From the IMG/VR virus record IMGVR_UViG_3300044911_002386, positions 103,812-167,811 of that record: a stretch of DNA of 64,000 nt; one strand, 5' to 3'. The position numbers and the translations under genes are program-made. The notes beneath the pieces are model-generated. The model was given only the letters and a program-made list of their open reading frames with translations. It was not told the origin of the DNA and did not search any database. Of this stretch, positions 7,694 through 37,766 are shown piece by piece (the first letter of the stretch is position 1; the number at the start of each line of letters is the position of its first letter). Origin of the DNA: a virus.

Positions 7694-7935
7694 GTTAACA
7701 CTCGAAATAACTGCACGGCAAAAGCCAGAATTACGACAATCCAGGCAATCAGACCGCTGAGAGCTAAAAAAACAATAAACGACGTCAGAGTCAATGCCGG
7801 GAACAATTTCTGAATAGGTATTTTACGAAACAGCAGCAATGCACGCATCCATTGCGGCGACGGCTTGTCCGGCGTTACGTCTGGTGTCGGCGAAGGTTTC
7901 GGCTTTGGCTGCCAGGGCCAGTTTATTTTGCTCAT
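7690..7935 (-). CDS. small membrane protein with Pro-rich N-terminus
   Basis: PKPKPSPTP followed by a long hydrophobic segment; overlaps both neighbours by 4 nt. Confidence 0.7.
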   Translation of the reverse strand: MSKINWPWQPKPKPSPTPDVTPDKPSPQWMRALLLFRKIPIQKLFPALTLTSFIVFLALSGLIAWIVVILAFAVQLFRVLT

Positions 7936-9779
7936 CGCGGTGTTCCTAAAAAGTTGCCGCCAAACCGCTCGATTGTTTGATCTACGATTGATGGCTGCGG
8001 CATATTGCCGTGAAAAGCCTGCAGGGCTAATTGATGGCGATAAGCCGGGTTAATAAACGCCTGATACGACTGATTATTCCGCTGGGCTTGCAGCATCCAG
8101 TCGCCCCGTCTTTTAATTTCAGCCATGTGATTACGGATGTTCTCAAACACAGGCTTCTGCATGTCATACGCGAAAGGACCGCGGCCAAATACCGAGTTCC
8201 GCAGTTCATTTAAATACACGCTGTTCGCCGCGGCTTTTACGCCAGCCGGAATAACGGTCGGATCTATGTGGAGCCTGAAATTCGTGGGCCGGTGGGTAAT
8301 GCCTTTGTATTTCGGCTTAGCGTCGTCGATTACCCAGTCATCAGGCGATTGTGCCATCAAGCGCCGAATGATCGCGGCCTTGTGGTCGTAGCGCTTGTTA
8401 TCCGAATGTTCTTTTGCCGCTAAAAGGTCTTTGAGGATTTCGGGCTGCGCGGCTTTCTCTATTTTTTCTTGCTTGTCGTAGTAGGCCGCGTCTTCGGACA
8501 AGTGATCCTTGGCAATTTCTTTGGCGATTTGATCGTTGTCGGTGTGCTCGTGCTCATGCCGTGTTCCCCTAGTTAATTCTTTTTTCAAAAACTTATTATC
8601 GGCCTTGCCGTCGGCTTCGCCACCAGATAACAGATCCGCCTGTTTCTGCTGGCTTTGCAGTTTTTGCAGTAGGGCCGAAAGGTCTTGCCCTGGTTTGTAT
8701 TTCAGCGTGCCCGGAAGTTTGTCATACGCCGCAATCGTGGGCGTGTGAAACTTATAGACAAGATCGGCAATACGCTTTTTTTCTTGCTCGACGTCCGGCG
8801 TCCATTTTTTTGCGGGGTCTTTTTCGTACCGCTGTTTTGTGCGGCTAAGGCGTTGTTCGTACGCCTGCTCGACAGGCGGGTTTACATGCACCCTTTTGTA
8901 TTTGCTTAAAATCTCAGGCGGAAGATACGACAGCTGCACACCCTCGACCACGGCGGGCCCGTCGTTTTTCTCCAACGTTTGCATAGCCGTTTGCCGCATC
9001 AGTGCCCGAAAGTCTTGTTCTTTGGGCGAGCCGGCTGGCAAATGATTATCCGGCGTATTGTCGTCAAGAAACTTTTGAAAATTGGGATCTTGATCGACCG
9101 ATACGCGCGGCAGTTTTAATTTTTCGGCTAGGGCTTTTGACAGCGTAGATTTGCCGGCCCCAGAATGCCCGCTTACGAGCACAACCTGGCTCGGGTCCGC
9201 GGCAGCGGCTTTGCGTACCTCATTGTCGCCGAGCACGTTCTTTTTTCGTACTGCGACCGTGATGTGAAACGGATGGCCCTTCGGCAGCGGCGACAATCCG
9301 TAACTCTTGCGAATTGCGGTTAAGCCGGGGCTCGAGACTTGCACGGCCCAAACTTTGCTTACGCCGCTAATGCCTCGGACGGTTATTTCTTTTAACGGCC
9401 CAAGTGTGTAGCCAAAGTTGTGGCCACGCTCATTGATCTTATCGGCACCCACCGACTGCACTTCGTCGGCAGTCATCACAGAAATATGGGCGTTCAAAAG
9501 ATCTGCGTCAACGTTGGGCACATTCATCGCGCCGGCCAACGGCAGTTCTGCCCCGGGCGCCACCAAGGCGTCAAATAATCCACGGACTAACGCGTTTGGC
9601 ACAGATAGCAGAAGCCATCCGCTTTTTGCCAGATACAAGCGGCCAGATAATGAATGATTTGCAGCCGTCTTTGTTCCCGTGCGGCCAAGCCAGCCAATGG
9701 CGTTGCCAAGCTGGTACACGGTTTGATCTTCCAACGATGTTTCCCACAACAGCGGATCAAGACTGAATAAGCTGTTCAT
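7932..9779 (-). CDS. multi-domain protein: 2H phosphoesterase + P-loop kinase + DUF5661-like + two unknown modules
   Basis: HISV (aa 98) and HITV (aa 172); GHSGAGKST Walker A; GTRHEHEHT..AKEIAKDHLSED..YYDK; modules separated by KTAA, KAAA, KQA, KAA, KAAA. Confidence 0.8.
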   Translation of the reverse strand: MNSLFSLDPLLWETSLEDQTVYQLGNAIGWLGRTGTKTAANHSLSGRLYLAKSGWLLLSVPNALVRGLFDALVAPGAELPLAGAMNVPNVDADLLNAHISVMTADEVQSVGADKINERGHNFGYTLGPLKEITVRGISGVSKVWAVQVSSPGLTAIRKSYGLSPLPKGHPFHITVAVRKKNVLGDNEVRKAAAADPSQVVLVSGHSGAGKSTLSKALAEKLKLPRVSVDQDPNFQKFLDDNTPDNHLPAGSPKEQDFRALMRQTAMQTLEKNDGPAVVEGVQLSYLPPEILSKYKRVHVNPPVEQAYEQRLSRTKQRYEKDPAKKWTPDVEQEKKRIADLVYKFHTPTIAAYDKLPGTLKYKPGQDLSALLQKLQSQQKQADLLSGGEADGKADNKFLKKELTRGTRHEHEHTDNDQIAKEIAKDHLSEDAAYYDKQEKIEKAAQPEILKDLLAAKEHSDNKRYDHKAAIIRRLMAQSPDDWVIDDAKPKYKGITHRPTNFRLHIDPTVIPAGVKAAANSVYLNELRNSVFGRGPFAYDMQKPVFENIRNHMAEIKRRGDWMLQAQRNNQSYQAFINPAYRHQLALQAFHGNMPQPSIVDQTIERFGGNFLGTPR

Positions 9780-35057: not shown

Positions 35058-35765
35058 CAAGGCACCGAGCTAATCTGTTGTTAACGCACAACAGAGTCCG
35101 CTTTTGGGATTCGAACCCATAGCCCCACAGGTTGCCCTGCTGGCTCGCGGAAAGTTCCTGTACGGCAGACTTACGTCCACCGCGTCGAGTTTCAAAACTT
35201 CGCTGGCGTGTAGGAATCCACGCTGCGCAAGTCCGTCCCTCGACTCCGATGTGAACAAGGTCTTACCCTTGCCGTGCGTTCCGCTAAAATTGATCGATTC
35301 AGCGTTCCGTGGGAACGACTTATGAACCGGCCACTTTAAACGGTGAATTCTGCGGAAGTACAGAATCCAGCACAATTTGCCAATGAGCACTCTTCGGTTC
35401 GACACCCCGTGGGAGTGACTTACGAACCTAGCTCACCAACAAACTCACGTTGCTCGTCACCGCATATAAGAAGCGGCAGCGGCTTCTGCCCGGCTTGTGA
35501 CCGGATACAGAACACCGCAGCGACGAACCGCCTACTAACTAACTTGCGTTAGCGTTCGGTACACAGGCGCTCTAGAACAGCACGCCCATGTCGGGAAAAA
35601 CGCTCTTGGCGTTTTCGCGGTGGTGATTCCTCACACACCCCATACACGAATTGTGCTTTAAGCCGCACAGCCTTGTATGACAGGCTAGGCCGTTGAGAGT
35701 TTCACTCAACCCCTCCCTTTTTAACGTGGCTAGGTCCCCCACGGATGACACCTAGGGTGCCCTCA
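35058..35765 (-). ncRNA. candidate ~700-nt large structured ncRNA
   Basis: Own promoter motif; no credible ORF; more than 12 hairpins including GCAA/GTAA loops; duplicated covarying 33-nt module; TTCGAAT T-arm; 5'/3' closing stem. Confidence 0.75.
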
Positions 35766-35769
35766 TTAG

Positions 35770-35796
35770 ATATGCCGTGATTTATGCTGTTATTTA
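35770..35796 (-). promoter_or_regulatory. putative phage promoter TAAATAA-N13-GGCATAT
   Basis: Near-identical to the copy at 36444. Confidence 0.8.
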
Positions 35797-35805
35797 GATA
35801 CCCGC

Positions 35806-35860
35806 TGATAGCTAAGAAAAACCGCAAGCGCGGGGCTTTCGCCCTGCAACTTTTGGTTTC
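35806..35860 (-). terminator. intrinsic terminator followed by TAGCTATCA
   Basis: GCAGGGC-GAAA-GCCCCGC hairpin in an extended stem, T-rich tract, TAGCTATCA. Confidence 0.75.
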
Positions 35861-37403: not shown

Positions 37404-37412
37404 ATAAACAAG

Positions 37413-37766
37413 TGGACCCGGCGGGAGTCGAACCCGCGTCCGGAGAAGTGCCCAGTTAAAACATCTACGTGTGTATGCCATTATCTTTCACCAACGGCCA
37501 ATGCTATCCGCACACTTAGCGGAGTCACGTGGACTACCACGATCTCGTCCGATTACTTTGCCGGACCGACGCAAGTGACTTATCACTATCAGCCTGATTG
37601 GGCGATGAGGTCCAGGCAACCCCACAAGCCACCTAACCGAGGTCAGGCAGCGAGGGCCGGAGCATAAGCGCCAGCTAGAAACTTAATCGAGTTTTAACGC
37701 GGCCTCTCGATCAACCGCGACACGCAGTCAGAACCTTCTTCCTCCCGTCGATACCAGTACGGGCCC
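37413..37766 (-). ncRNA. ssrA: tmRNA; predicted tag (A)GAYAPALAA* at 37643-37672
   Basis: 5' GGGCCCGTACTGGTATCGAC, 3' GCGGGTTCGACTCCCGCCGGGTCCA with G3-U70; PK1 CGCGG..ATCGAG..CCGCG-TTAAAA-CTCGAT; tag ends in LAA. Confidence 0.93.

Follow-up and report, generated by a model that had tools for sequence, protein, structure and literature searches.

A large RNA with a repeated hairpin module

The window analysed here, a stretch of 64,000 nucleotides (nt) from the virus record IMGVR_UViG_3300044911_002386 (positions 103,812 to 167,811), encodes on its minus strand a large structured RNA in which a 33-nt hairpin module occurs twice. The source is a 167.8-kb virus record, 82% complete and seen in lake metagenomes, and it carries an RNA polymerase subunit gene. 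The module lies within a gene-free stretch, with a recurrent promoter-like motif immediately 5' of the RNA and a cluster of tmRNA and tRNA genes beginning 1.6 kb away. A coding role for the region was rejected, as open reading frames (ORFs) crossing it are not kept in homologues, and is also contradicted by an indel at about 35331 in a close strain. On the comparisons described below, the RNA appears to belong to a large phage RNA family missing from Rfam, of which the conserved module, duplicated in the window lineage, would be a new feature.

The two copies of the module reported in a first-pass annotation are confirmed, 100 nt apart (Table 1). They are identical at 24 of 33 positions, a self-match reached by none of 300 dinucleotide shuffles of the RNA (best shuffle 23, mean 19.9 for a 33-nt self-match). 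All nine differences are transitions at paired positions, and loops and bulges are free of them (for nine transitions placed at random, simulated P = 0.003), while retention of all 13 pairs taken alone has a simulated P of 0.05–0.06. The three double-sided compensatory changes noticed earlier are borne out, and three further changes between the copies are one-sided (G-C/G-U, U-G/U-A and G-U/G-C). Minus-strand folding of the two copies gives z = -2.3 and -2.4, versus -0.8 and -1.2 for the plus strand. There is no third copy anywhere in the 168-kb genome.

Modelling favours a fold somewhat different from the one first drawn: 6 bp, a UAA bulge, a G:Y pair (Y, pyrimidine), a bulged Y, another 6 bp and a CA(C/A) triloop. 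Within the proposed TAAGT bulge, UAAG is indeed invariant, but its G pairs opposite a pyrimidine in all five versions of the module, so the bulge consists of UAA plus one Y; similarly, the CCCACGG described as the apex is invariant between the two copies, but its unpaired loop is CAC only. The upper stem pairs in 35 of 35 cells across the five versions (26–51% in slid controls), with two pairs altered on both sides, and every version allows a lower stem of 6 bp. In copy 1 the lower stem has two competing registers, with pair probabilities of about 0.46–0.49; in a close strain the G:U of this copy becomes G:C and the lower stem is preserved via two G-U pairs. All five versions share UAAG, the C-G pair that comes first and the two that come last, together with the CA of the loop; the third triloop base is C in the window and A in the two distant homologues introduced below. 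As U-A-A-G, C, U-C-C-C-A and G-G are invariant beyond the needs of pairing, selection seems to act on the sequence of the module and not on its shape alone. These patterns support the module hairpins as real, selected structures inside a large structured RNA. The module is among the best conserved elements of the family.

In predicted folds, each copy caps a separate arm of 22–28 bp, and the module sits at an arm tip in all lineages. No similarity between the two arms is visible outside the 33-mer, and the duplication therefore looks old. The alignments and folds together show a selected hairpin at the end of such an arm, single in two lineages and double in that of the window.

Homologues and distribution of the RNA

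A covariance model of the two copies, a check proposed with the first-pass annotation, matched one site each in the related phage records G013 (E 0.003) and G031 (E 0.008). Each site lies in a heavily folded stretch free of ORFs, about 610 nt long in G013 and 480 nt in G031, which is homologous to the window RNA along its length. The module, whose absence from homologues would have spoken against it, is thus present in both of these RNAs. Conversely, a profile built from G013 and G031 only ranks copy 2 first genome-wide in the window phage (E 0.008). Conserved words are collinear among the three RNAs from the 5' pseudoknot to the 3' end, and local alignment scores of the window RNA against the homologues lie above shuffles by about 5.5 and 3.9 standard deviations. 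The G013 and G031 lineages have one module copy each, so that the description of the module as a repeated site holds for the window lineage, where it is doubled, but not family-wide, two of three lineages being single-copy.

Among close strains, L222 retains both copies; its 31 substitutions relative to the window comprise 21 at unpaired positions, nine that keep or compensate a pair and one that breaks a pair, in a predicted fold with 56% of bases paired. In run X21, the RNA differs at 24 of 713 positions, versus 91 of 687 in the upstream gene region. The G031-type RNA recurs unchanged in several samples. The RNA was present in one of 21 near-complete relatives, which indicates that it is optional in this group of phages, and in L218, L270 and L271 a terminator comes immediately after the same upstream gene. 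The hairpin that ends the G013/G031 RNA on its 3' side (L219:3203-3240) is similar to the terminator at the empty sites of L218 and L270; gain or loss of the RNA therefore seems to have occurred just upstream of it. The complete G013 genome lacks the upstream 157-aa gene, which occurs without the RNA in L225/L226, and the downstream 126-aa gene has only four close homologues; from a comparison of these genes, no dedicated protein appears to travel with the RNA.

Wider searches added no members. Pattern scans of viral and metagenome contigs for the module gave chance matches without hairpin context, and L210, L215 and L216 were rejected as carriers because the upper stem matches and the lower stem is lacking. 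A further model, which covered the pseudoknot at the 5' end together with the T-loop and included two hand-trimmed rows, found no further homologue among 74 records, BLAST of two family members against GenBank phages gave no match, and a pattern scan for the 3' tail of the window RNA returned tRNAs and unrelated loci only. The window RNA has no Rfam match even at E<=10, and Rfam scans of it, of G013 and G031 and of the L222 locus yielded chance matches only. No published description of the family was found in literature searches.

Contigs of two metatranscriptomes, from runs found using this stretch, fall only inside 35390-35756 and none on the flanking genes; as such contigs give neither strand, ends nor level, they hint only weakly at expression of the RNA.

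Architecture of the RNA and its surroundings

Table 1. Features of the RNA locus, in window positions.
Feature	Position	Strand	Description
Promoter-like motif, recurrent in the phage	35763..35815	-	Directly upstream of the RNA; further copies at ~36487 and ~34597
Non-coding RNA core, ~610 nt	35155..35762	-	Colinear with homologues of ~480 nt (G031) and ~610 nt (G013); ends inferred
5' H-type pseudoknot	35725..35755	-	Predicted stems 35755-35750/35735-35730 and 35743-35739/35729-35725; includes CCGTGGG
Hairpin with invariant UGAAACU loop	35692..35710	-	5/5 pairs change on both sides across lineages
Candidate long-range closing helix	35157..35684	-	35684-35680/35161-35157; CCUGU/ACAGG here, CCUGC/GCAGG in G013 and G031
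Arm 1, long helix tipped by copy 1	35374..35445	-	From folding; similar to the single arm of G013/G031 in its base and internal loop (orthology judged by eye)
Module copy 1	35396..35428	-	6-bp stem, UAA bulge 35422-35420, G:U pair 35419/35402, U bulge, 6-bp stem, CAC triloop 35411-35409
Arm 2, irregular helix tipped by copy 2	35281..35343	-	From folding
Module copy 2	35296..35328	-	Architecture as copy 1; upper stem identical to the single copy of distant homologues
3' tail, GCAA hairpin and tRNA-like T-loop hairpin	35097..35151	-	Absent from G013/G031

The stretch 35070-35765 folds with z = -7.25 against shuffles. Both stems of the pseudoknot can form in four of four RNAs, the second being nearly invariant and hence without proof by covariation. 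The pair changes of the UGAAACU hairpin were counted in an alignment of four sequences with two hand-trimmed rows; at 35706/35696, L222 and the runs X21 and X23 have G-C in place of A-U. The loop of this hairpin is probably T-loop-like. The candidate long-range helix is of 5 bp only, would enclose about 520 nt, was anchored by hand and shows one compensatory change. Taken together, the pseudoknot, the hairpin and the closing helix are suggestive of a single RNA, not of several small ones in a row, within the limits of three lineages and hand anchoring. A GNRA loop stays GNRA, as GGAA in the window and GCAA in G013 and G031. In G013, a structured insertion of about 130 nt (L217:2805-2940) occupies the loop of the 5' pseudoknot and contains a GGAA-capped hairpin similar to one of the window RNA. 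The 3' tail is possibly a separate small RNA.

The locus is larger in close strains, at about 1,020 nt in full. A 352-nt hairpin-dense domain follows the RNA there (L222:3756-4107, falling between window 35095 and 35094); it also follows the 3' tail in run X21 and is cleanly missing from the window strain. This domain folds with z = -3.95 and has neither an Rfam match nor a BLAST match among 71 records including the window genome.

Further structured elements occur in relatives. A distinct RNA-like element (L234:1325-1670, L236:1325-1670, L228:1820-2175 and at about 1500 in L253) measures about 340 nt and has a long terminal stem that closes it; it varies between copies yet keeps its stems, and has no Rfam match. 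A small tRNA-elbow-like element (L234:2260-2360, L221:2760-2855, L236:2245-2360), with a closing stem, a variable long stem and a T-loop-like hairpin, occupies the site of the G013/G031 large RNA, likewise with no Rfam match; the 3' tail of the window RNA is laid out similarly. A conserved folded element of about 70–100 nt stands directly behind the phage promoter motif at L234:1815-1885, L228:2320-2385 and L217:2325-2390. Structured stretches free of ORFs, with a T-loop-like hairpin and a terminator at their end, were seen in L241 (G039:16560-16780) and L226:770-1090, with no homology to the window RNA by the tests applied.

The motif upstream of the RNA, which has no sigma-70 match, probably acts as a promoter. 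At window 36487, 35814, 34597 and 34257, a terminator U-tract is fused to a recurring motif that runs into promoter-like sequence; this fusion is present in related phages too and fits a phage-encoded RNA polymerase. The nearby cluster comprises a phage tmRNA at 37410-37766, with tag peptide GAYAPALAA, and adjoining tRNA-Glu, -Val, -Leu and -Lys genes. Elsewhere in the window, at 7932-9779 and adjoining tRNA-Asn, lies a gene for a protein of 615 aa that combines a 2H phosphoesterase domain with an AAA/kinase-like one and is widespread among related phages.

Possible roles of the module

The first-pass annotation had viewed the copies as protein-binding or RNA-RNA docking sites, and had pointed out that CCCACGG is complementary to CCGTGGG in the 5' pseudoknot. 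With regard to the role of the module, this still seems the best class of explanation, apart from the version in which the apex base-pairs with the 5' segment. In that version, the C-rich strand and apex would pair with the G-rich segment as a switch or intermolecular contact. The complement at 35744-35738 is indeed perfect over 7 nt and extendable to 9 bp, the window RNA offers no better partner than the 5' segment (-16 to -17 kcal/mol), and G031 could still make seven pairs with its own 5' segment. However, Watson-Crick docking by this complementarity is not supported. Pairing would require melting both the stem, in which four of the seven apex bases sit with pair probabilities >0.9, and the local pseudoknot, for which the 5' strand retains a partner (CCACG/UCACG) in four of four RNAs. 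In both distant lineages the apex is CCCAAGG and the 5' segment CUGUGGG or CCGUGCC, and the C-to-A change is without compensation, the pairing being broken in G013. Moreover, the duplex is no better than chance (16, 48, 28 and 104 of 200 shuffles were as good, or 8–52%), and CCGTGGG arises in 6.5% of shuffled RNAs. We thus regard pairing of apex and 5' segment as very improbable.

Our preferred explanation, to which we give about even chances, is that the module is the conserved functional arm tip of a new large architectural phage RNA, and serves as a sequence-specific, non-Watson-Crick RNA docking surface in the manner of ROOL and GOLLD. The arm would carry the tip away from the core for a sequence-specific RNA contact made without Watson-Crick pairing. 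As the triloop leaves little to pair, we favour contact via the bulged adenosines, which may form an adenosine-platform-like AA over the G:Y pair, and the invariant tandem C-G pairs beneath the triloop, the two acting as A-minor donor and helical receptor. An AA platform on a G:U pair and helical A-minor receptors have been described (PMC2275092). Such contacts could be made within one chain or between chains, like the bridges of the ROOL and GOLLD cages, which are held by A-minor and loop contacts and whose variants gain peripheral stems that add bridges (PMC12286853, PMC12990946). An old duplication would have given the window lineage a second arm and a second contact, with both copies remaining under selection. 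The parent RNA shows traits of protein-free ornate RNAs, namely a pseudoknot, T-loop-like hairpins and a retained GNRA loop.

Several considerations weigh against a docking surface. A partner site was not found. The comparison covers three lineages, and its covariation counts are weak and inflated by related sequences. On the strand opposite the bulge, the A and U of the 11-nt GAAA tetraloop receptor are missing, and four of five versions have G:C as the closing pair, which costs 4.3 kcal/mol in that receptor (PMC2275092). For expression, there is only the weak hint from the contigs. Finally, sequence-invariant hairpins with a bulge and a loop are equally typical of protein sites.

This last point leads to the possibility that each module binds a protein, of the host or of the phage core, with duplication raising the valency of an RNA that would be a scaffold or sponge. 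The bulge and short loop of invariant sequence are exposed on an arm, two independent copies share an identical architecture, and OLE and HEARO are precedents of large protein-binding RNAs (PMC12286853). However, no neighbouring gene co-occurs with the RNA, which leaves a host protein or one common to these phages, and we regard protein binding as the main rival, a strong one but less likely than RNA docking. Alternatively, the second copy could be a tolerated leftover of duplication, folded merely to avoid disturbance, in a window locus that is itself a reduced form: a single copy suffices in two lineages, the window is without the 352-nt domain found in close strains, and the RNA is dispensable in most relatives. 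Against this, bulge and apex are identical in both copies although nothing recognisable is left in common between the flanking arms, and a hairpin merely kept folded would not preserve its loop sequence. A leftover seems improbable.

The RNA could even found a further, independently evolved class of protein-free phage RNA assemblies, with the tip of UAA bulge and CAM triloop (M, A or C) as a new recurrent docking motif, and one- and two-arm variants assembling with different contacts or stoichiometry. We consider this reading rather unlikely. To our knowledge, large ornate phage RNAs are few and none has a known function. The family is a natural experiment, offering a compact one-arm form of 480 nt, one with a 5' insertion and one with a doubled arm, such that it becomes directly testable how these RNAs grow by module duplication and whether a further arm brings a further contact. 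In the search for a partner, the invariant tip gives a precise target.

Comparison with known RNAs

At the level of the module, the closest likeness is to the 11-nt GAAA tetraloop receptor and its adenosine platform, with a UAAG strand and AA stacked over a G:Y pair. In contrast to that receptor, the opposite strand of the module supplies the pairing pyrimidine only, there is no UA-handle, the closing pair is mostly G:C and the flanking pairs vary. On sequence, the module resembles half of the receptor but fails its definition (PMC2275092).

Resemblances to raiA, HEARO, the cobalamin riboswitch and group II introns, which for raiA and HEARO come down to a UAAGUC word and a CACGU-like word, were rejected as being without model support. 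The raiA model (RF03072) has no match at the RNA and a single 14-bit match elsewhere, in a coding region; raiA RNAs have a long terminal stem and a length of about 200 nt (PMC12968392). The HEARO/omega RNA model (RF02033) has no match at the RNA either, and no HNH/IscB-like ORF lies in or beside it. MISL RNA is set apart by the negative Rfam scan alone.

The window RNA shares with ROOL (RF03087), whose mean length is 581 nt (PMC5737381), a similar size, a multibranched shape with pseudoknots and an optional presence, and it has the setting of that type, being phage-borne, near tRNA genes, non-coding and 500–650 nt long. However, the ROOL covariance model has no match at E<=10 in the window genome (G000), G013 or G031, with the plasmid pMP118 as a positive control at 130 bits. 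The L. salivarius ROOL has no sequence similarity to the window RNA (z ~0, local alignment scores equal to the shuffled mean), and the module pattern was not found in it. With GOLLD (RF02032), the likeness extends to a lake-phage origin, a tRNA neighbourhood, T-loops and variable domains gained and lost, as well as to the length of the locus in close strains. The conserved 3' domain of GOLLD (P14-P27) was undetected in the window, G013, G031 and the extra domain of L222, in scans for which there was no true-GOLLD genome as positive control; the Rfam model, of 416 positions, seems to span the 3' part only. On these comparisons, the window RNA appears to be a member of none of ROOL, GOLLD, raiA and HEARO, and by analogy it may work in the same way as ROOL and GOLLD.
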